Assembly (NCBI GenBank): GCA_022824265.1
Contig: JAJEAG010000024.1
Span: 27,521 to 91,520, forward strand
Reading direction: 5' to 3'
Origin: Candidatus Poribacteria bacterium
GTDB lineage: Bacteria > Poribacteria > WGA-4E > WGA-3G
Length of the DNA: 64,000 bases
Notes under the pieces: model-generated
Seen by the model: only the letters and a program-made list of their open reading frames with translations
Told to the model about the DNA's origin: nothing
Databases searched by the model: none
Position numbers and translations under genes: made by a program
Shown: piece after piece, positions 2,231 to 56,123 of the stretch
Layout of the letters: the number at the start of each line of letters is the position of its first letter
Position numbering within the stretch: position 1 is the stretch's first letter

Positions 2231-5104
2231 TTATGATCCACCAAGTTTTCTGAGATGACTCTGTGCTTGCACTTTCCACTGTTCGGGTGGATTTAATTCA
2301 AGAAAACGTTTCCACTGTTTTTTTGCAAGTTCAATACGTTCAGTGTATTCATACATTAATGCCAGGTTAAAGTTTGCTGTTAAGTTACGTGGTTCCAATT
2401 GAATCACTCGTTCAAATTGATCTGCGGCTGCTCCGAGTTTATCCATACTATATAAAACATTCGCATAGACAATTATTGTATTCACATGCTTGTCGTTAAG
2501 ATCAAGTGCAATTTCCAACATGGTCTTTGCTTTGTTATATTGCAACTCAGAATTGTAATAAAGATCACCCAGACGTTGGTACGCTTCTGTGGCTTTATCA
2601 TCAATTGTAAGTTCTTTTTCATAGAATTGGATTGCCTCTTTCCATTCCTGATTGCGTTCTGCAAGTTTACCAAGTTGAATGTGAACACCTTTATATTTTG
2701 GTTTCAATCGGATTATTTTATTAAAGGTATTTTTAGCTTGTTCAAACTTCTCTGTATATATTTGAAGAACTCCAATGTGAAAATGTGCTTCCACATTTTT
2801 TGGATCTAATTCAACGACTTGCTGAAAATCTCCCAATATCTGCGAACTTCGATACAACTTACCTTTAATATGCTTATATCTATTTGTAATCATACCCCGA
2901 TAAAAATATGCGTCAACAAATCCCGGATTGAGTTCAATTGTCTTAGTATACTCAGTGACAGCCTTATCAGCAGGTGTATTGTAGTTTTCAAGAGTTGCTG
3001 CATGAGTATCTAACAATCGGGCGTATTGATAGTGCCACTCAAAATGAATTGGATCATGTTCGTTAGCTAAAGCGTAATGATGTAATGCATGTTTGATGTT
3101 CTCATCATACTTTTCTTTGGGTTCAGCCTTACTACGTTTGTTAAAAACAACTGCCAGTGTATGGTGGACATTTGGATGATTCGGTTCCAGTACCAATGCC
3201 GGTTGATAAAAACGTATCATGTTATCTTCGTCTTCACGCACTTGGTAGATGGCACCCAGTTGGAAGAATGGTTTGGCATTTTCAGGATCTAACTCAGTCG
3301 TCTTTTCATATTGCACAATTGCGTTGTCAATATCACCTCTTTTTTCATATAACAATCCTGCTTGATATTGAGCATCAACGTTGTCAGGTTCAAGACGAAC
3401 GGTTTCCAAAAATGCTGATAACGCTTCATCGTGTTGTTCCAATGCCATATAGGACTTAGCAGACAAATAATGTGCTTTGGCATCTGCGGGATTAAGTGCA
3501 ATAATCTTCTTCAATGCTTCCAGCGAGTCTTGATGTGAACCTATTTCGTTGAAGATATGCACCATTCTATATAGCACATCTGAACGATCTGGGTTTAATT
3601 GCAATGTTTTTTCATAAAATATAAGGGCATTATCTTTATCATCTATCCATTCATAAGATTGACCTAACAGATCGGTTACTACAATCTCATCAGGATATAG
3701 AATGTGGTGGATGTTTAATGGTTCTATTGCATCTTTATAGTTCCCACCCTCAAATTCTGTTTTGCCCTGTTCTATAAAACGGGTTGCAAGTGTCGGGTTC
3801 ACCTCAAGTGCGCGACGATAATGGGTAGCTGCTGTTTCTAATTCCCCTTTCCGTCGATACAAGTCACCTAAATGAATATCAGAATCTTGGAAGTTGCCAT
3901 TTAGGAGCTGCATGTTGAGTAGACTCGAATCTGCATTCACAATCTCAAGTGTTTTCTTATAGTGTTCAATGGCTTTATCTATATTACTGGTATCTAACTC
4001 CAGTTTACCCATATAGAAGTAGGATCTTGGGTCGTTTGGTAGAACTACCATCGCCTTTTCCAACAGAGCGCGGGCATCATCTACACCCATAATTCCTACA
4101 AAGTATGATTCCAAAGGTTGATAGATGCTGTCTTTGAATGTAGGATCATTGTCAATAGCCCTTTGATAATGAATTATCGCAGTTTTAACATCACCTTGTT
4201 TATAGAGAACATCCGCTATTGCAAAATGTGCGGAAGCATGCGTGGGTTCAATCTCAAGTGTACGATGATACAACTGGATAGCACCATCTATATTGCCAGT
4301 TTCAGCGAATATAACTGCCAAATCATATACATCGGTTGCTGTGTAAGGTTGATATTCTGCAGCTTTTTTGTATTCCTGAAGTGCTTCATCAAAAAAGTTT
4401 TCATAGGCAAGCACTTGTCCAAGTTTTATATATGCTGGTGCGAATTTACGGTTGTTTTGTATTGCACGTTCAAATGTTTCACGTGCCTTATTCAAGTTCC
4501 CTTGGTCAAAATAAACCAAACCTACGCCATAAACTGGATATTCCCACTTAGGATTCAAGGTTTGGGCAGAATCAAATGATTGTAATGCCTCTGTGTGGTT
4601 ACCCTGTTTGAGATGAATTTCTCCGATGTAGTAGTGTGCAGGATAGTATTTCGGATTGAGTGTGAGACTTGTCCTAAATTTGGTGAGTGCTTGATCGTAT
4701 TTTTCCTGTTTCTGAAAGATTGCACCGAGACTGAAATGTGCCCAAAACATTGATGGATCAAGTTCAAGTGCAATTTCATAGTTAGTAATTGCTTTTGTTT
4801 CTGCATCTGGATTGTCTTTTACATTAGTAAGAGCATAAGTGTATCCCAAGCCGTATATCAATGCAGCATTGTCGGGGTGTTTTTCTTTTACTCTTTCATA
4901 CAGTTGCGTCAGTTCAGATAGGTATCCCTTTTTTCTCCAATCAACAATGAGTTCTCGATGTTTTTGTGGGGCATTCTTTTTTGTATTTAAAACCTTAGAA
5001 AAATCTTTTTGCATATCCTTTTCCCATTTCTCTTGTGCTAAGGTAGAAAAAGTAATTGCAACTATAGAGAGAGAAATAATAAGTGCGGTTGTAAGTTTTT
5101 TCAT
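2231..5104 (-). CDS. Large secreted tetratricopeptide (TPR) repeat protein
   Basis: 957 aa. N-terminal signal peptide MKKLTTALIISLSIVAITFSTLAQE, then dozens of 34-aa TPR-like repeats (recurring AxxxYxxAL, LxPxxxxA). Confidence 0.8.
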   Translation of the reverse strand: MKKLTTALIISLSIVAITFSTLAQEKWEKDMQKDFSKVLNTKKNAPQKHRELIVDWRKKGYLSELTQLYERVKEKHPDNAALIYGLGYTYALTNVKDNPDAETKAITNYEIALELDPSMFWAHFSLGAIFQKQEKYDQALTKFRTSLTLNPKYYPAHYYIGEIHLKQGNHTEALQSFDSAQTLNPKWEYPVYGVGLVYFDQGNLNKARETFERAIQNNRKFAPAYIKLGQVLAYENFFDEALQEYKKAAEYQPYTATDVYDLAVIFAETGNIDGAIQLYHRTLEIEPTHASAHFAIADVLYKQGDVKTAIIHYQRAIDNDPTFKDSIYQPLESYFVGIMGVDDARALLEKAMVVLPNDPRSYFYMGKLELDTSNIDKAIEHYKKTLEIVNADSSLLNMQLLNGNFQDSDIHLGDLYRRKGELETAATHYRRALEVNPTLATRFIEQGKTEFEGGNYKDAIEPLNIHHILYPDEIVVTDLLGQSYEWIDDKDNALIFYEKTLQLNPDRSDVLYRMVHIFNEIGSHQDSLEALKKIIALNPADAKAHYLSAKSYMALEQHDEALSAFLETVRLEPDNVDAQYQAGLLYEKRGDIDNAIVQYEKTTELDPENAKPFFQLGAIYQVREDEDNMIRFYQPALVLEPNHPNVHHTLAVVFNKRSKAEPKEKYDENIKHALHHYALANEHDPIHFEWHYQYARLLDTHAATLENYNTPADKAVTEYTKTIELNPGFVDAYFYRGMITNRYKHIKGKLYRSSQILGDFQQVVELDPKNVEAHFHIGVLQIYTEKFEQAKNTFNKIIRLKPKYKGVHIQLGKLAERNQEWKEAIQFYEKELTIDDKATEAYQRLGDLYYNSELQYNKAKTMLEIALDLNDKHVNTIIVYANVLYSMDKLGAAADQFERVIQLEPRNLTANFNLALMYEYTERIELAKKQWKRFLELNPPEQWKVQAQSHLRKLGGS

Positions 5105-13448: not shown

Positions 13449-13709
13449 TTAATGTAAAACTGCGTTGTTTTCTTTTGTGACGCGAATTAGAAGTCGTAAA
13501 GCTTCGTTTACAGATGCAGCATCTGGAAACACTTCAGCAACGTCGGGTTCTAATTGGATAACAAGTTTACCACCAAAGGATTTACGTCCGGGACCTACCT
13601 TCCGCAATCGTAACTTTTTCAAGTCATATTCGGGCAAAAGATCGTCTTGCATCTTTGCTTTATCCTTCTTCATAATCTTTCCTTTCCTGCGGAGTTGCTT
13701 TTCTTGCAC
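13449..13709 (-). CDS. brnA: BrnA-family antitoxin (ribbon-helix-helix)
   Basis: DDLLPEYDL...KVGPGRK...VIQLEPDVAEVFPDAASVNEALRLLI matches the BrnA antitoxin pattern. It overlaps the brnT stop. The true start is probably an internal Met (13673 or 13652). Confidence 0.65.
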   Translation of the reverse strand: MQEKQLRRKGKIMKKDKAKMQDDLLPEYDLKKLRLRKVGPGRKSFGGKLVIQLEPDVAEVFPDAASVNEALRLLIRVTKENNAVLH

Positions 13710-13932
13710 TAATCAAACGAGTCTTATTACCTCTTTCAGAATATGCTACCATTAATACTCGATTTTGTGCTGATAGTCCGATGATAAGATACCTTTCCTC
13801 CTCAATAGAGTGATTTGGATCATCAAACACAACAAAAAGAGGATCTTCAAATACCGTTTTTGCTTCATTAAATGACACACCATGTTTTGATTGGTTCGCA
13901 GCATCTTTATTTGTATTCCATTCAAAATCCAT
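13660..13932 (-). CDS. brnT: BrnT-family toxin (DUF497 ribonuclease)
   Basis: MDFEWNTNKDAANQSKHGVSFNEAKTVFEDP is the canonical BrnT N-terminus. Confidence 0.75.
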   Translation of the reverse strand: MDFEWNTNKDAANQSKHGVSFNEAKTVFEDPLFVVFDDPNHSIEEERYLIIGLSAQNRVLMVAYSERGNKTRLISARKATPQERKDYEEG

Positions 13933-14215
13933 TCAAACTGTCCTAATAGCATAAACCAAGCCACCTAAGATTTTCCATACAATTTATTATAGCATATACA
14001 CCAGAAAATAGCAATGTAAGTATTATGCACGGTGTAAAGTTTTTTGCTTTGTCTGAACCAGAATTATCAGACAATAATTGTTTATAATTGCTATTTCACT
14101 AACCACCCATCCTGTTTTCTGTCCGATTAAGTATAGCCTGAGAATAGACATTTAGTTGAGAAGTAACCAATCCTGAAAATCCTATAATCCTGTAAATCCT
14201 GGTTCAGACAATAAA

Positions 14216-14736
14216 TATGGGCGCGGAAACCCATCCACGTAATCCGTGTACTCCTCTCCCACACATATTAACCACAATTCCACAAAAACACATAAAACAT
14301 ATTGGATATATATTGTTTCCAAACCCAAAAACTCCACAATCCCAATCAATCACAAGATATAATAATACGCAAACCAAAAGCAGCAGACAAACTCCATAAA
14401 GGAACAAAACCAGCACCGAACACCAAAAAAAACAACTAAACGGTATGGTTTTAGTTGTTTTTTTTAAATTGCAAGACAAAACAAAACTGCTACAAACCCG
14501 CATTACTACGCCATCGAAGGCACTATACAAAAAATTACAAAAAAACAACTAAAAAACAACTAAAATTATATTTCAATCTGAATATATTGATAAATTGCAC
14601 CAAAAATTTCAAAAACCAAATATCATTTCCACCACATGAATTACATTTGACAACTTTCACAAAACCATGCTATCATAATCGCAATAATTTCCGAGACCGA
14701 ACACATTACATCAGACACGCACAAGGAGCAAGAAAA
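14216..14736 (+). repeat. CA-rich, G-depleted ~0.5-kb non-coding element (copy A). It contains an internal bidirectional hairpin at 14431-14466.
   Basis: Almost no G on the + strand over ~500 nt. AACAACTAAA-cggtatggt-TTTAGTTGTT hairpin flanked by A- and T-runs. Colinear matches to the inverted copy at 55380-55800. Confidence 0.5.
14647..14676 (+). promoter_or_regulatory. Sigma70-like promoter (TTGACA-18-TATCAT) upstream of the small ORF and SBP gene
   Basis: TTGACA at 14647-14652 and TATCAT at 14671-14676. It lies ~60 nt upstream of the RBS+ATG at 14737. Confidence 0.35.
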
Positions 14737-14877
14737 TGAATCAAAGGAAACCACGAACTTTCTTCAAACAGAAGAACATAAAATTGATGATAGCGTGGTA
14801 TATACTATTACTCGGAGGAATCGTGATTTTAATATGGAAGTTGCCTGCACTTGTTTCATTGATATAACCACAATAAT
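14737..14877 (+). CDS. Small hydrophobic membrane peptide (46 aa), absent from the ORF track
   Basis: AAGGAGCAAGAAA RBS then ATG. MNQRKPRTFFKQKNIKLMIAWYILLLGGIVILIWKLPALVSLI* has one transmembrane helix. A counterpart ORF sits in the inverted homologous region at 55167..55352. Confidence 0.4.
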
Positions 14878-21845: not shown

Positions 21846-22300
21846 GTATAATATTGGTCAATGGTAATTTCTGAAATTTACAGAGGCATTCAATTGTTGC
21901 GTTGTAATCTGTGTAACCCGTGATTCTGATAACACAGCATGCTTCTTCGTAGCACAAACTTTCCAGTTTATACCATTCAATACCAACGTTATGATATGTT
22001 ATCATCCTGTGAAACGGACTACAATACACCGAACTCCCAATCCTGAAATCCTGAAAATCCTAGTTCAGACAACAAGCAATTCAGACATACAAGAATCACT
22101 AAATTGACGTTTATGGTGCAGTTCCTAACCGCACCAGACGCTACAACATAGACAATTCGTAGGTAAATCTAACCCGAAATTTAGTATTTGATTGCACATA
22201 ATTTAATTTTATGATAAATTACTTGTAACCAGAAATCTATCGTTCAAGAATGTTTGGGAAACTGAATAATACATATCCTGTAAGGAGGAGATGTTCAACC

Positions 22301-38948: not shown

Positions 38949-39265
38949 AATCAGACACAGGAATTTCTGCGTTCAGTAGCAGTATTTTCCTTTTGGAATC
39001 AGTTGAATTCCTCACTGAAAAAGATTCTCACTCTGGATACACAAAGGTATTACCAAAAATTCATGATATAAATCAGATATTTTACAGATTGTTTCCACGA
39101 GTGGGATTCTTACTAAAACACAAAACTAACACCTCAAAATCCACTAAAGTACCCACCAAAAAATACAATTTTCACATAAAATAACTTACAATTAAATATT
39201 GTCAATATCACTAATCTCTGCTCTGGAAAACATACACATTAAAGAAATTCGGTATAGGAATAACA

Positions 39266-40006
39266 ATGCGAGAAGAAGATTTACAAGCTCCAAACTCACT
39301 TCATACACCACATATATGTGAAGGTGGAAACCTTGATTGTGGTTCAGGTTTACTTCTGCTTATTCGAAAATCAATGGAAGAAGTTCCAGATGGAGAAGTC
39401 CTTGAGATACGGAGTACAGAAATAAGTGTTAAAGAAGATTTGCCTGCGTGGTGTCGTATGACAGAAAACCCATATCTCGGATGGCGACCAACAGATGAAC
39501 ATAATAAATACTTTGTTCGACGAGGAGAAGCAGAACAGGATGCTGATGCTGCCTACGAGCAAGCACGTGATTACCGATGGCAGACGCGAATCCATTGGGA
39601 TGGTGGCTTACAAGCAAAGGTATTTTGTAGAAATCATTCATGGATGGTAGGTCAACCCGCAAGTTTTGATGTACGTGATGCTGCTCCCAGTGCTGTAGAA
39701 TATGTACTCGGGGCATTAGGCGCGTGTTTAGCAATGGGATTTCAGATACGTGCATCCCAGCAGAAAATAGTGATTGATGAATTAGAAATCTCTCTAAGTG
39801 GAAAAATAGATAATATTTTTGTCTTTCTCGGCACAGAACAGGATGGTCATAGTGGTTTTAATGAGATAAGCGGTACTATCTATGTTGCATCAGATGCAGA
39901 TGACGAAGTATTGGAACAACTTTGGGATGAAACCCTTGCTGCTTCGCCTGTAACTAATACGATGATCCGTGATGTTGATATTGATGTTGACTTGCGTGTT
40001 ATTTAA
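39266..40006 (+). CDS. TusA-like / OsmC-like fusion protein
   Basis: N-terminal LDCGSGLLLLIRKSM (TusA-like). C-terminal EYVLGALGACLAMGF plus ...ASPVTNTMIRD (OsmC/Ohr fold). Confidence 0.5.
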   Translation: MREEDLQAPNSLHTPHICEGGNLDCGSGLLLLIRKSMEEVPDGEVLEIRSTEISVKEDLPAWCRMTENPYLGWRPTDEHNKYFVRRGEAEQDADAAYEQARDYRWQTRIHWDGGLQAKVFCRNHSWMVGQPASFDVRDAAPSAVEYVLGALGACLAMGFQIRASQQKIVIDELEISLSGKIDNIFVFLGTEQDGHSGFNEISGTIYVASDADDEVLEQLWDETLAASPVTNTMIRDVDIDVDLRVI

Positions 40007-49087: not shown

Positions 49088-52000
49088 CTAATCGGGTTTC
49101 CACCAAGGTGCGAGTCTGGGAGGAGAACCAGAACCAAATTCTTCGCCTCGACAGAATTCGTCAAGTTTTCTGCCGAAAACTTTTATATTTCTTCTTAAGT
49201 CTGAAGGATTTCCCCATCGTGACCAAAATCTATCTACGAGCGCAAGGAATTTAGGATCGTATTCTTGTATTTCATTATAAAGTCCTTCCTCTTTTCCAAT
49301 TTGGTAATGCCACCAATTTGCAGTGGGTGTCAGAGCAGGTTTCAATTGCTCAAAAACTGCAGATATTCTAAATAAATCTTGATTTTGTAAAGCCTCTCTG
49401 TAGGCTTCTCTGCAACTATGTTCTTGTTGCGCCACTTCGTACGCCCATGCTGCATGTCTACGAACCCACATGCTTGGATCAATTGATTTCAAATCCTCAA
49501 GTAGTTCAATGGCTTTGCCTGTTCCAAACCACGGCAAAATCGAGACCCCCAAGTTGCGTTCTTTTGCGTAATGGCTTTCCAAGTATTCCTTTTCGACTAA
49601 ATCCAATAACTCTTTCTCACCCCGTCCTGTTATAGCAGCAATTGTCATTAACATTATTTCTTCATCGTTTTGACATTCCTCTAAGAGATTATGTCTAAGT
49701 TGTACATGTTGTGGTGTATTACATTGTTCCACTTTCCAGATTTGAGCGTGAAAGGTTTCAATTCCATATTGGTTATAATTAAAAGTTCTTACATTTCCAG
49801 TTCTCCATTGTTGAAATATTTTAATTGCTTTTTCTGGTTGAAAGCGTAGTAACAAACAAAGGATAACATCCGTAAAATCGCTTAAGTCCCTTCTATACCA
49901 TGGAGATTTAGAAAGTTCTGTTAGATATTGATCTGATAGATATAAGAATTCATTTTGATTCTGTTCTGCCCAAGTTTGGATCACATCTCGGTTTATCCCA
50001 TACCGTGTATCTTCAACAACATTAGGATCATTTTCAATCCTTCTGAGTATTGATAACATACAATTCATAAGGTCAATGCCCCACCGCGAAAGATCATCCT
50101 GGCGGTCTGGTCCACAAAGGAAAGAACCTATAAATTCTGGGGGTATGAGCGATCTTAGTGACTCATAGGAAGGCACATCATTCCCCTCATAAGTAGGGAT
50201 TATCCATTTTCTTCCGTTCTGTGAAAAAAGATGATTCTGTATATTTTCATCCTTTTGTGTTTCGTTTAAAAATAGTTTTGGAAGAGAATATGCTAATCGC
50301 AGCATTGGATATGTTCCCGTTGAATCGGGTTTTCTCATCTTAAGATCTTCTAATGCATACTTTACTGTTCTATCCTCATGTTTAGATGCATAAGCAAATA
50401 ATGCACACCAATATTCCTCCTCCAAGAACTCTTCCGATTCCTCATCGGAAATAATCTGATTTTCCTGAGATAAAGTTCGGAATTCTTCCAACTTCTTCTG
50501 TGCTAATTCAATAATTGAGACTGGTAACAGTTTTTTAAACAAACAAGGCAATGACTCATAGCAAATTGAAGACCTGAGTGGTTCCTGAGACGCTAGGAAC
50601 TCAAACCAATCTATGAGAATTTCCTCAGATGCACAAAATAGGAGAGATTCTGTTAATAAATGAGTTAACCAAGCAACATCCGAATAATAATCTTCACCTT
50701 GAACAAGTCGTTTCTTCATTTTAAGAATTGCTTCTGTGATTTTTTGGCAATCTTCCTGTCTAAAAATAAGACCCTGAATTGACAATAGTTTGAACTGCGC
50801 CCATTTTTGAGGTAGAGTATTGATTTTAAGATTACAAGCAAGTTGAGCGTAACCCTCAGCATCATATTTTGCTATCCATGGCATTAAGTTTTGTATACAA
50901 TAGTCCTCAAGTGAAGCATCTACCCCTTGTCCGAGTTTGACATTTTTGGATATGTAGTGTAATATCTTCTTAATACTATTTAAATCTGCATTATGCAAAT
51001 CAGGTAAATCTGTCCGAGCCGCTAAATAATCAAGACCATGGTAATTGCCATTCACATTTTCTGCAGGTGACCTGTCTTTTAGTAACATCTCTTGGTCCCG
51101 GATCCGATCAATAAAAGGCTTGAAAGTGCTGTTCCATTTTTCGGCAAATTCTTTCCTTTCTTTGTTCTCCTCAGAAGGTGGACGCTGCAGTTGTTTATGT
51201 AAATTCGCTTGTTTAAGCTCACTTGCTAAACCATACACGCCTTTAATCAAATGTTCATCGGATGGATCTTGTTCTACTAATGAACGTAAGTCTTCTAATA
51301 TTGATTCAGTATATTCCCACCGTATTAGTCTACCTATATTTTTATTAAACTCAGGTTTTTGCTCATGAATTGCATAGCAGCGGGCAAGTGTAGGTAAAAA
51401 TTGACATTCTGGTCTTTGAGACAGGATAGAAAGTGCTGCTATTGCTAATCGAGTTTGTGTATAGTACATTGTTGGAAATGGAAGACTCTTAGGATTAATA
51501 TTGTCATCGCCATTTATTACTTCATCAGCATATGTAGGCAGAAGCCATTTTGTAAGACGCGATGCTAAATCATTAAGTTCACCTTTTTTGGTTCGCCAGA
51601 CTCTTGCCAATGGCTCAATGAGTGTATCCTCCTCATTTGGTGAAAGTTGATTTTTAAATTCCAATTCAACAACTTGACAATAAGCATCTGTGTAGTTTTC
51701 AACGCAAACAGACAAATGTTTTTTAGTAATTTGTGCATTGTGGCTATTAAACCAAGTAAACATTAAGGCTGCTTGTTTCTTAGAAATGTCAGAATCAGGA
51801 GATATTGCCATGATTTGGAGAGCATCAAACAATGCTCTTGTTCTCAGATCTTCTGAAGGAATTGGTTCAAGTGCCCTCTTTAAGCATTCAACCAAGTCAT
51901 TAATTTCTGCAGACTCCTCACTGTCAATTTGATTAGAGAGATATAATGCCCATCCAAGAACAATATGTTCGGAGCTTAAATTAGCGTGGACTAATCCTGC

Positions 52001-53515
52001 GTCAAGTACAATCCTTTGTTCCTCCAAGTCATGACGGATTTCATTGTAGTTCGGGAAGAACTTTAGAAGCACCTGAACAGATATTTGAGGAACATTATCA
52101 TCCGTCCATTTAACTTGTTTAGCAAGTTCTGAAAGTATTTCTTGGGCATCTTTAGCTTTATGCCATCCGAGTTTCTGTTTAAGCTGGGGATTTGTTTGAT
52201 CAATTTTATCAAGGAGATCAACCCACAAAACCAATTCTTTGGTTACAGTCTCAAATGAACCAAATCTATCACGTAACCGAATACATGTTTGAAAGTAACG
52301 TGGGTTTTTTGCAATATCCTTTAGTGAATCTGGCAAGTCATGAAGTTGCATTCCTTCTTTGGATAATGCCTTTTGCAATTCAGGATCGTTATAAGGGGTT
52401 ACTGAAATTTTATGGCACTGGTCCCACAAATCTTTCTCAAAGTCTGGGTAATCGCTTAAAGGCCGAGTGGTAAATAGAAAACCAATTCTATCTTTCCATT
52501 CGCTATTATGCCGAAAATAATCATTAAGGATGTGCTGTGCTGTTTCAATGGCATCTCTTTCATTTACACCGTCAAGTACAATAAGCGTTTTACGCCAGAT
52601 TTTTGCGGGTTTGTTTTGAAGCTTGGTTATCTTAGCTTGTTCAGAAGATGGATAGATTAAACTAAAACAGTTGTAAAGCAAGTCAAAAATAGACTTACTA
52701 CCTTTCCAGTCTTTACTATCTATCCAAAAGGTGGCAATATTTTCATTTTCCCCAATTGAGTTCATCCACTTAGCGGCAAACCATGTTTTACCAGTGCCTT
52801 CCTCACCTTCAAGGTAGCAAACTGATGTATCTTGCATTTGCCACCAATCTGTGATTTGTGATTGTAAGGATCCTCTATCTATCGCTTGAGTTAAGTCAAT
52901 CGGATTGAAGCCTTCATTCCGGTTAAAACGTTCAGTGAGATATTTTTCAACTTTCCGTTGAACGTGTATTTGGGTTTGGATTCCGTCTTCTAATTTGAAT
53001 TTGAGCTCTTCTAATTTTTTCTTTGTTTCTGCGTCATTCTTCATTTCTTCAATCCAAACTAAATAATCTTGGTCTGTGTCTGATAGATCAAAAAAGTGAC
53101 ATATTTTTTCCCAAAAGGTTATACACAATGCTCCGATATCTGATAAATCATCAGAAAGTTCAAGTAAAACTATATCCAAACCTGTTTCCAAACTAATTGC
53201 ATCTATTCTGTCGCGTATTTGCGCTGTATCACGAGAAACTGCCAAAACATATACTTGAAGATGTGATAATGTACGTATTACATTACGAATATCTCCTTCA
53301 ACTTGATTAGCATTAGGAGTATTATCACTCGTATACCTTTTTGCTTGCATTGATACTTCACCAGAGATGCTTCTTGCATCTCCACTTGGTTGTTCACCAG
53401 CTCTTGCAACGACAAAAGGTATTTTTAGAAACGATTTTAGTAATACCGCAACAAGTTCTTCAAACTCATTAGGCTTTATTTTGTGGATAAGTTCTTTTAG
53501 TTTTAGCCAACTCAT
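49088..53515 (-). CDS. Avs-like STAND NTPase with N-terminal Mrr-type (PD-(D/E)xK) nuclease domain and C-terminal helical (HEAT/TPR-like) repeats
   Basis: N-terminus FEELVAVLL...GDARSISGEVSMQAKRY...DIVLLEL matches the Mrr_cat pattern. Walker A YLEGEEGTGKTWFAAKW and Walker B TLIVLDGVNE (NACHT-like hhhhDGhDE). Length 1475 aa with a long alpha-helical C-terminus. Confidence 0.6.
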   Translation of the reverse strand: MSWLKLKELIHKIKPNEFEELVAVLLKSFLKIPFVVARAGEQPSGDARSISGEVSMQAKRYTSDNTPNANQVEGDIRNVIRTLSHLQVYVLAVSRDTAQIRDRIDAISLETGLDIVLLELSDDLSDIGALCITFWEKICHFFDLSDTDQDYLVWIEEMKNDAETKKKLEELKFKLEDGIQTQIHVQRKVEKYLTERFNRNEGFNPIDLTQAIDRGSLQSQITDWWQMQDTSVCYLEGEEGTGKTWFAAKWMNSIGENENIATFWIDSKDWKGSKSIFDLLYNCFSLIYPSSEQAKITKLQNKPAKIWRKTLIVLDGVNERDAIETAQHILNDYFRHNSEWKDRIGFLFTTRPLSDYPDFEKDLWDQCHKISVTPYNDPELQKALSKEGMQLHDLPDSLKDIAKNPRYFQTCIRLRDRFGSFETVTKELVLWVDLLDKIDQTNPQLKQKLGWHKAKDAQEILSELAKQVKWTDDNVPQISVQVLLKFFPNYNEIRHDLEEQRIVLDAGLVHANLSSEHIVLGWALYLSNQIDSEESAEINDLVECLKRALEPIPSEDLRTRALFDALQIMAISPDSDISKKQAALMFTWFNSHNAQITKKHLSVCVENYTDAYCQVVELEFKNQLSPNEEDTLIEPLARVWRTKKGELNDLASRLTKWLLPTYADEVINGDDNINPKSLPFPTMYYTQTRLAIAALSILSQRPECQFLPTLARCYAIHEQKPEFNKNIGRLIRWEYTESILEDLRSLVEQDPSDEHLIKGVYGLASELKQANLHKQLQRPPSEENKERKEFAEKWNSTFKPFIDRIRDQEMLLKDRSPAENVNGNYHGLDYLAARTDLPDLHNADLNSIKKILHYISKNVKLGQGVDASLEDYCIQNLMPWIAKYDAEGYAQLACNLKINTLPQKWAQFKLLSIQGLIFRQEDCQKITEAILKMKKRLVQGEDYYSDVAWLTHLLTESLLFCASEEILIDWFEFLASQEPLRSSICYESLPCLFKKLLPVSIIELAQKKLEEFRTLSQENQIISDEESEEFLEEEYWCALFAYASKHEDRTVKYALEDLKMRKPDSTGTYPMLRLAYSLPKLFLNETQKDENIQNHLFSQNGRKWIIPTYEGNDVPSYESLRSLIPPEFIGSFLCGPDRQDDLSRWGIDLMNCMLSILRRIENDPNVVEDTRYGINRDVIQTWAEQNQNEFLYLSDQYLTELSKSPWYRRDLSDFTDVILCLLLRFQPEKAIKIFQQWRTGNVRTFNYNQYGIETFHAQIWKVEQCNTPQHVQLRHNLLEECQNDEEIMLMTIAAITGRGEKELLDLVEKEYLESHYAKERNLGVSILPWFGTGKAIELLEDLKSIDPSMWVRRHAAWAYEVAQQEHSCREAYREALQNQDLFRISAVFEQLKPALTPTANWWHYQIGKEEGLYNEIQEYDPKFLALVDRFWSRWGNPSDLRRNIKVFGRKLDEFCRGEEFGSGSPPRLAPWWKPD

Positions 53516-53562
53516 TTTCTCTTTCCAATATTTCTACAAGATTTTGGTTTTGCTTCCAAATA

Positions 53563-55017
53563 TCAAAATTCCTGACTCCCTATAATATATGCATTTAAGT
53601 GATTCAATGCACTGCCATCATCCATTACTGACTTTGTGCGTTTGAGTGCTTCGTGTGGGTCAGGAGAAATCCCTAATAGATAATCTACCATAGCAGCGTT
53701 AAGCAGAATCCTATCGTAGATATGTCCTTTCTCTCCAGATAATGCAGCTATTCCTGCTTCTGTATACGCCTCAGCATTAACACTATCTGGTCGCGGATTT
53801 ACCTTATATTCAAATCCATAGGTTTTTGGATCAATGTCCAATGCAAAATCTTCGCGATTTCCATCAATGTGTCGGAATCCTTGTGAATAGTTGACTGCCA
53901 TTCTTTCAGGTGTAGATGGTTTCCCGAGACGAAGTGCGTAATGGCTTGTGCCTTCTTCACCTTTTATCGCAATTGCAGCGTGAAAACCTCGTTCATAAGC
54001 CATTTGAAGTAATGGTTTTTCATATCCAATGTGGTAGTAACCTATAACCATGTAATTCCTCTTACGAGCTGAGAAGAATTGTAGGGCTTTTTCCGTAGCA
54101 GCCCATGGCGGACGTTTCATGATATGCACACGTAATTCACGAATGTCATAAGCTCCAGGTGAATACTCACGTTGACTGGCATATCCAAACCCAACCGCTT
54201 TATCTGTAATTAATTGTGCTGTCTGTTCAAGTGTTAGATCAGTTTTTGCACCAAGTGCTTTCAATAACGTTTCTTCGGTGATACCATTCTTAGGTGGCAT
54301 TTCATCCACACTATGAAGCAGAGAAGGTTCTCCCAGTGCTGCTCTTACTGCTGCAACAAATAGAGTTGGACGGAAATAACGGGTTGCGCCGTCGTAAGGT
54401 TGTCCAAAATGGGTAAGGTTATCCACATCAATGGCTTTGATCTGTTCTGGATCAAAATAGGAATCAAGATATCCTCGAACTTCGTCGTAAGTTTCCCTGT
54501 TCATACGTTGTCCAATAAGCGCGGCAGCCTTTAGTGCCGGTTTAACTTTGTCAGAAAGGATGACTTCACACATCTGTCTTGTTTCTTCGTAACTTAAGTG
54601 CTTTGCTTGTAATATCTTTTCTAATGCGGAAACAACGATTGCCTCGGTTGGGTTATTGGGAATATAAACAATTTCTGGGTTGATAAGATATTGAATCTCT
54701 TTCGGCAAACGAGATAATAAAGACGGTAGGTATTTCTGAAATGCAGTTTTTTCTGCGGGGGACCACTGTGTTTCTTCAGGAAAATATTTTCTTAGGGTCA
54801 TTGCAACGAAAAATGCACCCAATTGTGCTTCTGAAACCTTCTCGTCGTGTCCCAATTGTCCATTCAACGAGTCTAAAACAGTTTCAAGGATGGCATCTGG
54901 CTGTGGTCCATCTGAAGGCTTTTTCCCTAAAGGACGTGTTTGATGAGGTCCGGTGCAGACACGTGCCTGCGCTTCAAGCATATCTTGATTGGGACCGGGA
55001 TATTGAGGAGTGTACAT
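53563..55017 (-). CDS. Divergent glycosyltransferase-family-3 (TrpD / nucleoside phosphorylase II)-fold protein
   Basis: AIAIKGEEGTSHYA resembles the TrpD VVHG.DGLDE motif. C-terminal GSALNHLNAY resembles the TrpD GSALEKLEAL seen at the window start. The N-terminal ~150 aa are extra. Confidence 0.35.
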   Translation of the reverse strand: MYTPQYPGPNQDMLEAQARVCTGPHQTRPLGKKPSDGPQPDAILETVLDSLNGQLGHDEKVSEAQLGAFFVAMTLRKYFPEETQWSPAEKTAFQKYLPSLLSRLPKEIQYLINPEIVYIPNNPTEAIVVSALEKILQAKHLSYEETRQMCEVILSDKVKPALKAAALIGQRMNRETYDEVRGYLDSYFDPEQIKAIDVDNLTHFGQPYDGATRYFRPTLFVAAVRAALGEPSLLHSVDEMPPKNGITEETLLKALGAKTDLTLEQTAQLITDKAVGFGYASQREYSPGAYDIRELRVHIMKRPPWAATEKALQFFSARKRNYMVIGYYHIGYEKPLLQMAYERGFHAAIAIKGEEGTSHYALRLGKPSTPERMAVNYSQGFRHIDGNREDFALDIDPKTYGFEYKVNPRPDSVNAEAYTEAGIAALSGEKGHIYDRILLNAAMVDYLLGISPDPHEALKRTKSVMDDGSALNHLNAYIIGSQEF

Positions 55018-55379
55018 ATTTTTTCTTCCTTGTTCACATCTGATTAGATTAATATATCATATTCATTCAATATAATCAATTCTTCATTATATGAAGTTAG
55101 CGTCATTTAATTGTCGATTTTTCTGTCTGAATCTCGGATGCACAGAGGACGTAGAAGATTTTGATCCTACAGTCCATCCCCCCTTGCAGGGTCGGGTTTC
55201 TCCATCCAAATAAAGAATAAAACAGATATAACGGGCGGGGAAACCCCGCCCCTACATAGGAATTCTATTATCAATGCTTGCGCGACTTGTTTGCATGTCA
55301 TGATTTTTGTGAATGATTTGACGGTGAATTGTTTGTGTTTTACTTGTAAATGCATCGGTTTTGCTCCTTCTAAAAACGC

Positions 55380-55800
55380 ACTAAAAACGGGTGTTTTTTG
55401 CACATTGGTGCGTTTTGATATTTGGAGTTATACCAGTCTGAGACTGGGTTTATAGGGGTTTTTGAAAATTCTGAATTTTTCATTTTTGGTGCGTTTTTTA
55501 TTTGCTTGGTTATGGTCGTTTTTTGGTGGATGTTTTTTGGGGGACGGGTGCCGGTTTTTGTTGAGAATGTGGGGTGTAAGCGGTTTTTGTGTTTCATAGT
55601 GTTTGTATTATAACAGGTGTTAAGCGTGAATGGAAGGGTTTGTGGACCTGTGAACAATATGTTTCATGTATGTTTGGAGTAGTTTTCAGTTTTCAGTGGT
55701 CAGTTTTCAGTTTTTTGTTGTCTGAATCGCGGAAGGCACTGAAGACGCTGAACGGAGTTTGGTGGGGTGGAGACTTTTTCAAGGAATTGTCGTATCTCAG
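55380..55800 (-). repeat. Inverted, diverged copy (B) of the CA-rich element, GT-rich on the + strand
   Basis: Its reverse complement shares ACAT(G/A)AAACATATTG, GCACCAAAAAT...TTCAAAAACC and CCAAATATCA in the same order as copy A. A homologous AAGGAGCAA RBS follows, with a small hydrophobic ORF at 55167..55352. Confidence 0.5.
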
Positions 55801-55988
55801 ACGTAGAGAACGATCAATCCTTGATTCAAGCAGAAAGTAATCAAGGGAAGAAACCTCTACTATAAGATTACAACGCGATGATTGAATGTCTATGCATATA
55901 TCTCGGAGTGTTAATATTTCCTACATGGGATACAATAACAGTGTAGTGTTCTGCCATATTTCTGATGGTGCTAAATAAAATGTATCAC

Positions 55989-56017
55989 ACTAATTTTCTT
56001 GACTTTTCCGCTAAATT
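55989..56017 (+). promoter_or_regulatory. Sigma70-type promoter for tRNA-Pro
   Basis: TTGACT, a 17-nt spacer, then extended -10 TGaTACTAT. About 32 nt upstream of the tRNA 5' end. Confidence 0.5.
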
Positions 56018-56049
56018 GTGATACTATAATTGGGTAATTTGTATTAAAA

Positions 56050-56123
56050 CGGGGCGTGGCGCAGCCCGGAAGCGCGCTTGAATGGGGTTCAAGAGGTCGC
56101 TGGTTCAAATCCAGTCGCCCCGA
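56050..56123 (+). tRNA. tRNA-Pro (anticodon GGG)
   Basis: Folded by hand. Acceptor CGGGGCG/CGCCCCG, D-stem GCGC/GCGC, anticodon stem CUUGA/UCAAG with loop AUGGGGU, T-stem GCUGG/CCAGU, T-loop UUCAAAU, discriminator A. No encoded CCA. Confidence 0.8.

Follow-up and report, generated by a model that had tools for sequence, protein, structure and literature searches.

The window, by which we mean the whole 64,000-nt stretch of DNA analysed here, comes from a low-GC genome of Candidatus Poribacteria, an uncultured phylum of sponge symbionts, and contains two intergenic regions, A and B, that are poor in G on one strand. Region A lies in its left part ahead of an operon on the + strand, which opens with the gene of a small membrane protein of 43 aa (14736-14867, +) and continues with genes for an SBP, three PhyH proteins and a sulfatase. 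Region B is found on the right, on the - strand, between the promoter of tRNA-Pro and that of a TrpD-like gene. The 43-aa ORF, which the initial annotation had read as 46 aa at 14737-14877, is a real conserved host gene with orthologues in at least 24 Poribacteria loci (profile E-value 1.6e-24). It has its own sigma-70 promoter, TTGACA-18-TGcTATCAT (14647-14676, +), situated outside and downstream of the element described below; scoring 11/12, this is the best promoter-like site of the region, it is kept in eight other species (L003, L004, L006, L007, L009, L012, L013 and L018), and the 5' UTR predicted from it for the SBP operon is ~50 nt long. The TrpD-like gene likewise possesses a host promoter, TTGATT-17-TATATT (55051-55079, -), ~20 nt beyond the right end of the element, which is kept in L086, an 85% identical orthologue without the element. 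The defence-type islands at whose edges the two regions had been placed received weak support on the left only (BrnT and weak BrxD- or DpdA-like matches), while the NACHT/TrpD-like pair on the right has no PADLOC match.

The base composition of the two regions is mirrored, as had been noticed at the outset. On the CA-rich strand region A (14216-14736) contains A.445, C.242, G.098 and T.215, and region B, taken as the reverse complement of 55380-55800, contains A.411, C.299, G.100 and T.190, against a G content of.197 (19.7%) over the whole 64-kb window. G stays at ~8-10% in 14240-14690 (+) and 55290-55710 (read on -), and in 400-nt windows the two regions are the lowest-G and lowest-C places of the stretch. 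The depletion is 2- to 4-fold, but the description "almost free of G" overstates it, as 2-8 G per 60 nt remain, and these are not confined to a CpG context. All four bases are affected in both regions, A and C being raised and G and T lowered, and the skew is present on both sides of the putative promoter of the element. The other intergenic regions of the window have no comparable skew and a third CA-rich patch (39106-39315) is of opposite polarity, for which reasons we reject replication-strand skew as the cause. Transcription-associated deamination driven by the element's own promoter is expected to skew the composition the other way and was likewise discarded.

Region B (55898-55101, -) is a fairly intact, near-complete member of the repeat family. 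It begins with a degenerate left TIR (ATAGACATTCAATCATCG, 55881-55898, -), by eye complementary at 12/18 positions to 55117-55101, followed by the upstream copy of a dispersed '...ccgcgaTTCAGACAA' module (55713-55733, -), which forms a direct repeat (86%) with 55118-55138. The conserved core of the family occupies 55284-55703 (-; nhmmer E = 3.7e-121). Within it lie a putative promoter module (55607-55659, -), composed of one TATTG unit (55659-55655), a 42-nt spacer and the extended -10 box TGtTATAAT (55615-55607), with the sequence GTTATAATAC invariant in six copies; a G-poor CA-rich segment predicted to be single-stranded (55499-55600, -); and a structured 3' domain (55372-55498, -). In the latter, arm1 (55498-55483) pairs with arm3 (55387-55372), arm2 (55416-55405) is a second copy of arm1, and there is an inner CCAGT/ACTGG hairpin; arm3 includes a U run, and a Shine-Dalgarno sequence (SD) follows directly. 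An open frame across the G-poor core, 'ORF75' (55370-55597, -), is called as a gene in several public assemblies. The SD (55369-55362) and a decayed ORF2 (55355-55167) together fill 55167-55369 (-). Inside ORF2 there is a REP-like palindrome, GGGCGGGGTTTCCCCGCCC (55233-55251), which has dispersed copies and is perfect in the window and degenerate in L101. The right end (55101-55138, -), alignable with those of L099 and L101, consists of a second TTCAGACAG module and a degenerate right TIR (CGACAATTAAATGACGC).

Region A (about 14140-14630, +), ahead of the SBP operon, is a copy that is old and decayed. Most of its sequence similarity has been lost, but it still has the G-poor composition, the promoter module and a helix built to the same design. 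Its left flank holds an inverted pair of the dispersed '...aatcctggTTCAGACAA' module (14049-14211, arms 14049-14070 and 14190-14211), enclosing a degenerate left-TIR-like sequence, AATAGACATTTAGTTGAG (~14143-14160), that was recognised by eye only. This module occurs 40 times in 790 kb of Poribacteria loci against ~6 expected; its region in copy A is 86-94% identical over 37-48 nt to the L030, L026 and L009 copies and can be aligned by eye with that of L099. The promoter module (14287-14389, +) comprises two 11-bp TATTG units (14300-14315), a 42-nt spacer and TATAAT (14358-14363), an arrangement found also in the orthologous loci L004 and L018. Further downstream, an A-run/stem/T-run helix, AAAAAAAACAACTAAA / TTTAGTTGTTTTTTTT (14421-14475, +), has arms of 16 nt that are 100% complementary, with further direct copies of the 5' arm at 14539-14553 and 14550-14564 and a folding z of -3.3. 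The remnant blocks GCACCAAAAAT / TTCAAAAACC / (CC)AAATATCA (14597-14625, +) are contiguous here and stand 15 and 31 nt apart in the family alignment of intact copies. In several species fragments of the element have survived ahead of this SBP operon. Of 80 SBP-orthologue loci nearly all come from Poribacteria MAGs, for which reason a cyanobacterial origin, at first suggested by the repeats, was rejected.

The relationship between the two regions is real, although their pairwise alignment shows it weakly and the homology had to be established indirectly. In a direct Smith-Waterman comparison A and B scored 29, shuffled sequences giving 26.7 +/- 3.1, and gap-tolerant scoring gave z = 1.8-2.5, so that local alignment alone is not a significant proof. 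The alignment proposed in the initial annotation as a check had a divided outcome: the strict local score does not rise above shuffles, but a collinear k-mer chain reached 106, a value attained by 0/500 shuffles (50 +/- 14) and by none of the controls (reversed B 71; other natural CA-rich sequences 32-84), and ordered blocks common to both regions are indeed present. The pattern TATTG-N41-44-TAYAAT has only 2 matches in the window, one per region and both on the CA-rich strand, which gives A and B a common module of 11-bp TATTG units, 42-nt spacer and TATAAT. A bridging copy, L093 from a relative, matches region B with 75% identity over 166 nt (E = 5e-25) and region A with 88% over 51 nt (E = 2e-11), and the family nhmmer profile detects L018, L006 and L093 as well as region A itself (14287-14389, E = 1.5e-4). 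It is on the bridge, the profile matches, the shared spacing and the k-mer chain that the homology is founded, and given these the suggestion that two low-complexity CA-rich sequences merely resemble each other by chance, for which the unremarkable strict local alignment would speak, retains a negligible probability.

That both regions belong to a dispersed family of non-coding repeats is, judged from sequence, highly likely. The search for further copies yielded six relatives of region B (L097-L102) with 82-91% nucleotide identity, recovered via ORF75 homologues and then fetched as loci, and their alignment (264 columns, almost without indels) has 85% mean column identity. Three of the copies belong to one MAG (GCA_022825665.1), where they lie on three contigs, each beside unrelated genes; the genes preceded by copies outside the window include those for GlnD, RecJ, CofC, DUF6807 and DUF8173. 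The module is repeated and is no random intergenic DNA, and among the options considered initially the "footprint of related integrative elements" came closest to this result. The element is about 0.8-1.0 kb long (0.8-1.04 kb) with a conserved core of about 420 nt, and better-preserved copies are bounded by TIRs, CAGAG(C/A)CATTCAAT (TIR sequence CAGAGCCATTCAATTG), whose arms measure 18 nt in L101 (89% complementary), 30 nt in L099 (77%) and 15 nt in L098 (80%). All known insertion sites (8/8) are divergent intergenic regions, and in the copies examined the right end falls ~10-20 nt upstream of a host -35 box. The number of tandem TATTG units (ATATTGGATAT, 11 bp) varies from 1 to 4 between copies. 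GTAG-headed palindromes flank and interrupt the element and are absent from the G-poor core. In public short-read and Tara contigs three breaks fall inside the element, as is expected of a multi-copy repeat, and plasmid and phage collections and viral contigs gave no match.

The multiple dispersed copies, three in the one MAG and two in the window, contain no internal transposase gene. The flanks of L101, L099, L098 and copy B have no target-site duplications, searches starting from ORF2 found neither an autonomous partner nor a transposase for the element, and the TIRs of the window copies are degenerate, with only the left end recognisable in A; for these reasons it is from dispersal only that we infer mobility. 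The element is probably MITE-like, carrying a promoter, a G-poor RNA and a terminator-like helix, and would constitute a non-coding, probably mobile unit. Its core may be read in the order of 1-4 TATTG units, a 42-nt spacer, the extended -10 box, ~100 nt of G-poor CA-rich sequence, a 127-nt helix-closed domain with A-run/U-run flanks, a strong SD and the stump of a decayed ORF.

The lack of G had been taken as an argument against a structured riboswitch, and a lack of structure is predicted for one part of the element only. The 5' ~100 nt of the core are predicted to be unstructured (RNAalifold places no pairs in alignment columns 1-117), but in the 3' 127 nt arm1 and arm3 close a domain by means of a 16-bp, A/U-flanked covarying helix, which RNAalifold predicted independently. 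In this helix 99.3% of the cells are paired, CG, AU and UA pair types occur at two positions and 0/500 shuffles had as high a covariation score, on the basis of 7 sequences that vary at just these two stem positions. Pairing of arm2 with arm3 was counted in the family copies alongside arm1:arm3; arm1 and arm2, two direct repeats, change in step, for which concerted evolution or the binding of a protein, and not alternative RNA pairing, could be responsible. In old copies the helix design is kept with other arm sequences, namely CAACTAAA in copy A, GTTACCA in L018 and CGTACTATA in L006, and a covariance model of the family 3' domain has marginal matches exactly at these three helices (21.4 bits, E about 0.06 for copy A). 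The covarying helix includes a run of 5-8 U; whereas an intrinsic terminator has a G+C-rich stem and an unpaired U-run, the stem here is A/U-rich with the U-run paired to the A-run, and a terminator consensus scan of both regions did not call the helix. Both regions contain uninterrupted series of 78-nt windows in which C/G reaches 3 or more. Neither a spaced-C pattern (11-13 nt) nor AAnAAnAA motifs, ARN repeats or YC dinucleotides exceed the expectation from composition, and such Hfq/Crc-type or spaced-C signals were discarded. In Rfam 15 only tRNA-Pro reached the gathering score in the window, with no relevant family at E <= 1 in either region.

Small proteins may be considered as products of the G-poor core, namely ORF2 and a basic protein of 75 aa whose mRNA would be nearly leaderless. 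In favour of this, ORF75 has nine database homologues, and in six of these 71-80% of the amino acids are identical along the full length. Its ATG lies 9 nt past the -10 box in copy B and L093 and 6 nt past it in L018; the frame runs on for at least 79 codons in L093 (p = 0.03) and for 58 codons in L018 (p = 0.02), two copies that the ORF search did not recover, and a strong SD precedes ORF2. The nucleotide differences, however, are spread evenly over the codon positions in ORF75 (e.g. 10/10/10, 13/13/10 and 7/7/6) and in ORF2, and non-synonymous changes far exceed synonymous ones. The full-length copies came from an ORF search, with its bias to intact frames, the peptides of copy B, L093 and L018 resemble one another no more than shuffled sequences do, and the best-kept 'residues' fall on nucleic-acid hairpins. 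ORF2 (about 62 aa in the window) ends at a different point in every copy, and no element ORF has a Pfam match. Because the differences fall equally on the three codon positions, ORF75 and ORF2 are judged from the sequence not to be coding, and we regard the protein reading as very improbable. A conserved basic protein was rejected for ORF75 on the same codon-position evidence. A transposase stump was likewise rejected for ORF2, since the searches found no full-length relative (no protein begins like it) and its match to P0130 is spurious. ORF2 is not a paralogue of the 43-aa host ORF, whose profile does not detect the B ORF. The RBS initially described as homologous ahead of the two short hydrophobic ORFs, AAGGAGCA, is no more than the Shine-Dalgarno consensus used locally and is found 6 times in the window.

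On the function originally proposed, the G-poor DNA would regulate the SBP and TrpD-like operons in cis, as a leader or as an operator module. It would act as an unstructured translation enhancer or as the site of a shared regulator that co-regulates both loci. Several observations agree with this view: the CA-rich strand points at the adjacent gene in all cases, the TATTG units resemble direct-repeat operators with one-helical-turn spacing and occur, within the SBP-orthologue loci, only upstream of the SBP operon, and domestication could explain why element fragments persist there in many species. However, the host promoters lie downstream of the element, which leaves the SBP operon with its short 5' UTR; L086 has the TrpD-like and NACHT genes and no element; and the same element with its TATTG units stands before unrelated genes at other loci. 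In divergent intergenic DNA either orientation points at a gene, and the variable number of units is like that produced by tandem-repeat slippage. A leader specific to these loci is largely refuted, and the proposal as a whole appears improbable. With their period of 11 bp and their constant distance of 42 nt from the -10 box the units recall an OmpR/PhoB-type operator, also built of 11-bp direct repeats. They travel, however, with the element to unrelated genes, and the idea of an SBP-specific response-regulator operator was dropped on that ground.

Another possibility, which we can entertain only tentatively, is that the element is selfish DNA without RNA function and moves as single-stranded DNA like REP/RAYT or IS200/IS605-type elements. 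Under this joint reading the covarying helix would be a DNA hairpin used in transposition and the G depletion a mutational scar: C and A of the GT-rich strand would be deaminated repeatedly while it is exposed, which yields G-to-A and T-to-C changes on the other strand. A skew that involves all four bases as complementary-strand deamination predicts, and that extends to both sides of the putative promoter, is in line with this; so are the embedding of the element among classical REP-type repeats (a GTAG head, then a palindrome), the lack of target-site duplications expected for ssDNA transposons, and a symmetrical helix that would form equally well in DNA. Against it, TIRs are not an IS200/IS605-type feature, and old copies that are presumably immobile are still G-poor though their sequence is no longer alignable. 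Moreover, TATAAT and its 42-nt spacing to TATTG are the best-kept features even in the decayed copies A, L018 and L004, which points to selection on the promoter. The explanation that we favour, and consider fairly probable as a complete statement including its mechanism, is that the regions are copies of a probably mobile element with its own promoter, a G-poor RNA and a terminator. The promoter would give rise to a G-poor RNA of about 100-230 nt, the single-stranded 5' part of which may be kept free of G, and transcription would end at the helix and U-run. The product could be an element-borne small RNA, or the whole a self-limiting transcription unit that spares host genes from the element promoter; with a C/G of ~3 the RNA might also be an ideal Rho loading site. 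In its fullest form this reading would make the element a gene for a small RNA, mobile and present in multiple copies, or else an attenuator cassette that loads Rho. The ~100-nt 5' part of its RNA would be held nearly G-free by selection to stay single-stranded, and the element would spread among the genomes of sponge symbionts, settling immediately ahead of host promoters. One copy would then predate the split of the low-GC Poribacteria species and have been maintained ever since at the SBP/PhyH/sulfatase operon, retaining promoter, helix design and composition while its primary sequence turned over. Such an extended version is possible but doubtful.

Among known systems the closest are bacterial MITEs and intergenic repeats equipped with promoters and RNA hairpins, such as Correia/NEMIS (Neisseria), ERIC/IRU, and the modular BOX and RUP (Streptococcus pneumoniae). 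Like these, the Poribacteria element is non-coding, multi-copy and intergenic, with TIRs in some copies and modules that recur in different combinations; it has an outward-facing promoter-like site and a hairpin, and its position next to host promoters could alter their expression. It bears no sequence relationship to them, is 0.8-1.0 kb long compared to roughly 0.1-0.3 kb, and differs in having no observed target-site duplication and no known partner transposase. In its core the two strands differ strongly in composition, G making up about 9% of some 300 nt, and to our knowledge such an asymmetry has not been described for those families. A MITE is usually under 600 bp, a size that the element exceeds. 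The general class of bacterial MITEs and intergenic repeats has been reviewed (PMC3184786). With REP/REPIN sequences (RAYT) the element shares the flanking and interrupting units of GTAG head and palindrome, e.g. GTAGGGGCGGGGTTTCCCCGCCC and GTAGCACAAACTTTCCAGTTTGTGC, and movement as ssDNA would fit its hairpins and the lack of target-site duplications, but its G-poor core has no GTAG-headed palindrome, and the element has TIRs and is far longer than a REP or REPIN, whose imperfect palindromes measure 20-40 nt and often form inverted pairs. CrcZ and CrcY of Pseudomonas are A/C-rich protein-sponge sRNAs of about 400 nt with AAnAAnAA motifs. The putative RNA resembles them in size, A-richness, single-stranded character and a terminator at its end, but not in the motifs, which are not enriched, and it has no Rfam match and comes from a multi-copy, dispersed element. 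The RNA bound by Rho is unstructured, rich in C, poor in G and no shorter than 70-80 nt (PMC6407284), and like rut sites and Rho-dependent attenuators the element would supply a predicted unstructured, C-rich, G-poor RNA far over this length with a C/G of about 2.5-3; rut sites, however, are defined by function and not by homology, and the characteristic C spacing is not enriched in the element.

No description of such repeats in Poribacteria was found in the literature, and the element family, previously undescribed, would be the first intergenic repeat or mobile-element family described for Candidatus Poribacteria. It explains recurrent assembly breaks in genomes of this phylum and flags the 75-aa 'hypothetical proteins' of public annotations as non-coding. 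The point of interest is the retention of composition without sequence, old copies having remained G-poor after alignable similarity was lost. If this is due to selection for an unstructured RNA, or for a platform that loads Rho or another protein, it would be an unusual case of a regulatory RNA being spread by a mobile element; should a mutational scar lie behind it, single-strand DNA transposition would here have left one of its rare visible footprints. In neither case would accepted views be overturned, and the element is a new family of the familiar bacterial "junk-or-regulator" kind.

The G depletion reported for 14216-14736 and the mirror composition of 55380-55800 are both borne out by base counts: the former has A.445, C.242, G.098 and T.215 (window average G.197), and the latter, read as its reverse complement, A.411, C.299, G.100 and T.190. 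In 400-nt windows, region A (upstream of the solute-binding protein, or SBP, operon) and region B (between the promoters of tRNA-Pro and the TrpD-like gene) mark the window's minima for G and C, with depleted tracts at ~14240-14690 and ~55290-55710 at 60-nt resolution. They are also its two longest intergenic regions, both divergent, and every other intergenic region of the window lacks a comparable skew.

Direct comparison of A with B was unimpressive. Of the local-alignment check on A and the reverse complement of B that the initial annotation had proposed, the strict Smith-Waterman version gave a score no higher than dinucleotide shuffles and gap-tolerant scoring gave z = 1.8-2.5. The collinear exact k-mer chain (106) was reached by 0 of 500 shuffles (50 ± 14); the controls for the chain were 71 for reversed B and 32-84 for other natural CA-rich Poribacteria sequences. 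The supposed twin relationship is upheld by other evidence, and A and B are most probably homologous. On the CA-rich strand each has TATTG separated from TATAAT by a 42-nt spacer, a combination that a pattern search found nowhere else in the window. Among the SBP-orthologue loci it turned up in L004 and L018, in the orthologous position upstream of SBP, plus one unrelated chance match. An element copy in L093, a Tara scaffold from a close relative (hom 93% identical), bridges the two: it is 75% identical to B over 166 nt (E = 5e-25) and 88% identical to A over 51 nt (E = 2e-11). The family profile likewise matches both regions. Since the blocks picked out in the initial annotation, GCACCAAAAAT, TTCAAAAACC and CCAAATATCA, are contiguous in A but 15 and 31 nt apart in intact copies, A is a decayed copy with internal deletions.

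The family was searched for with ORF75, a 75-codon frame of B whose start lies 9 nt past TATAAT, as protein query. Six of the nine database entries recovered were 71-80% identical over the full length, and the contigs of the homologues gave six further copies (loci L097 to L102); the MAG GCA_022825665.1 holds three copies on three different contigs. The adjoining genes are mutually unrelated (GlnD, DUF6807 with a radical-SAM gene, CofC, DUF8173, RecJ and others), the context is divergent and intergenic at 8/8 known sites, and in the copies examined the right end lies ~10-20 nt upstream of the host -35 box. The L101 copy also adjoins a divergent tRNA gene. The core alignment, 264 columns long, is nearly indel-free, and its mean column identity is 85%. 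A search profile made from the six full copies matched the window at 55703-55284 (E = 4e-121) and 14287-14389 (E = 1.5e-4), as well as L093 (E = 3e-23), L018 (E = 1e-7) and L006 (E = 2e-5). It gave no match to a third, shorter CA-rich G-poor patch (39106-39315, +; G.08, A.45, C.22), situated immediately upstream of a TusA-OsmC fusion gene and beside a DsrE-like gene. Terminal inverted repeats (TIRs) bound the element in L101 (596-1637), L099 (2745-3551) and L098 (2631-3652) and are degenerate in the window copies. Element fragments persist upstream of the SBP operon in L003, L004, L006, L012, L013, L017 and L018, which points to an ancient insertion or else a hot spot. Nothing similar was found in plasmid, phage and viral collections. 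Public assemblies are broken inside the element three times (Logan SRR16351689 at window 14288 and 55388, the Tara scaffold at L093 position 1), compatible with the repeat being multi-copy or with variation between strains.

The window belongs to a low-GC clade (38% GC), and of the 80 loci recovered with the SBP protein as query, nearly all carry Candidatus Poribacteria MAG titles. Downstream of A lie the solute-binding protein, three PhyH-family dioxygenases and a sulfatase, and in front of this operon, at 14736-14867 and the equivalent position in L003-L082, is a 43-46 aa single-pass membrane ORF. Its conservation in at least 24 species (consensus MKQKRPxRSFFKKKxxKxMIVWYLILLxGILxLxWKM) indicates a real small membrane protein; for the window's sequence, the assembly collection has no gene on record with this product. 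Of the two small hydrophobic ORFs singled out earlier, this one thus stands as a host gene, while ORF2, behind the element in B (55355-55167, -), is non-coding and unrelated to it. A promoter conserved in orthologous loci, TTGACA-18-TGcTATCAT (14647-14676), precedes the 43-aa ORF, so that the operon has a 5' UTR of only ~50 nt, with the G-poor tract situated upstream of the promoter. The TrpD-like gene, too, has a promoter of its own (55079-55051), and L086, with an 85% identical orthologue, keeps this promoter and the TrpD-like/NACHT pair with nothing like region B. The proposal of a leader or translation enhancer for the neighbouring genes finds no support, given these host promoters downstream of the element, the unrelated genes beside it elsewhere and its absence from L086. 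The closest relatives on the hom/tRNA-Pro side have an AP-endonuclease gene in place of the TrpD/NACHT block: L093, L094 and L096 have an AP-endonuclease-2 gene upstream of tRNA-Pro and hom, where the window (49088-56123) has the element, the TrpD-like gene and a 1475-aa NACHT protein. On the other side of A (13449-14014, -) are a BrnT toxin gene (13660-13932) and its probable BrnA partner (13449-13709), with a conserved promoter TTGCTA-17-TATAAT (14014-13986) containing AATAGCAATGCAAG, common to L004, L012 and L018.

The open frames of the element are not coding. Differences in ORF75 (55370-55597, -) between copies are shared evenly among codon positions 1, 2 and 3 (for instance 10/10/10, 13/13/10 and 7/7/6), with non-synonymous changes far exceeding synonymous ones; those in ORF2 are likewise even, its end point differs in each copy and no full-length relative was found. 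A relationship of ORF2 to the host 43-aa ORF was ruled out. A frame from an ATG 6-9 nt after TATAAT is open for at least 79 codons in L093 (237-1, -), 58 in L018 (3197-3373, +) and 75 in the window (55597-55370, -); the similarity of the peptides does not exceed that of shuffles, and the substitution pattern is not codon-like. That the frame is uninterrupted in L093 (p = 0.03) and L018 (p = 0.02), copies not found via ORFs, is odd; translation as such may matter, for example in shielding a rut-like RNA.

The most conserved short features are the -10 (TGtTATAAT in 5/6 full copies, AGtTATAAT in L101, TATAAT in old copies) and its spacing from the TATTG units, from which we infer a functional promoter. 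The 11-bp unit ATATTGGATAT (window 14300-14315; L012 3681-3718; L018 3118-3144; L004 3400-3415; the element copies) occurs in 1 to 4 tandem copies at a steady 42-43 nt from the -10. Each copy has a 16-nt arm (AAAAACGNACNAAAAA) whose complement lies 95-97 nt further downstream. In an alignment of seven copies, 99.3% of the cells of this helix are paired, with CG, AU and UA pairs at two positions; its covariation score was reached by 0/500 shuffles, and slid controls collapse. The 5' arm also exists as a second direct copy, which varies in concert with it and can likewise pair with that 3' arm. RNAalifold independently predicted the long-range helix with two inner hairpins and no pairing in the first 117 columns. 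Old copies keep the helix design with different arm sequences, and a covariance model of the 3' domain gave marginal matches (E = 0.03-0.07) exactly at W 14421-14475, L018, L006 and L093. No Rfam family matches the element.

Further dispersed repeats occur as well. The module (ctt)atcctg(a/t)aaatcctggTTCAGACAA, with the variant ending ccgcgtaatccgcgaTTCAGACAA, occurs 40 times in 790 kb of Poribacteria DNA (~6 expected), in the window at 14057(-), 14203(+), 22064(+), 55131(-) and 55726(-) and in many loci, often paired, in tandem or inverted, and often immediately upstream of promoters. At 21870-22100 a short composite repeat joins a TIR-like ACAGAGGCATTCAATTGTTGCG, a GTAG-headed hairpin (GTAGCACAAACTTTCCAGTTTAT) and a TTCAGACAA module; its left part also lies 5' of the G-poor core in L097, L098 and L099. 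Classical REP-type repeats (GTAG head, then a G+C-rich palindrome, e.g. GTAGGGGCGGGGTTTCCCCGCCC) are scattered through these genomes (window 55233-55251; L006 ~2820-2930; L100 ~1990-2330; L098 ~3385-3410), which suggests a RAYT-type system. The main rival to an RNA-level role is a scar of single-strand-DNA transposition, the helix being a DNA hairpin: GTAG-headed REP repeats surround the element, and no target-site duplication is visible at its flanks.

As an RNA, the element would be transcribed from its own promoter into a G-poor product, ~230 nt long for B and ~100 nt for A, that would terminate at the helix and a U-run. Because G pairs with both C and U, its removal would be the simplest way to keep such an RNA single-stranded. 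Motif tests of the element regions for Hfq/Crc-type sponges were negative. With C/G ~3 over >200 nt, the putative transcript also matches how a Rho loading site is defined (PMC6407284).

The element represents a new family within a familiar class, a MITE-like bacterial intergenic repeat with promoter and hairpin; we found no literature on such repeats in Poribacteria, and the strand-asymmetric, G-depleted core is unusual. Old copies remain G-poor after their alignable sequence has been lost, which points either to selection acting on composition or to a lasting strand-specific bias in mutation.
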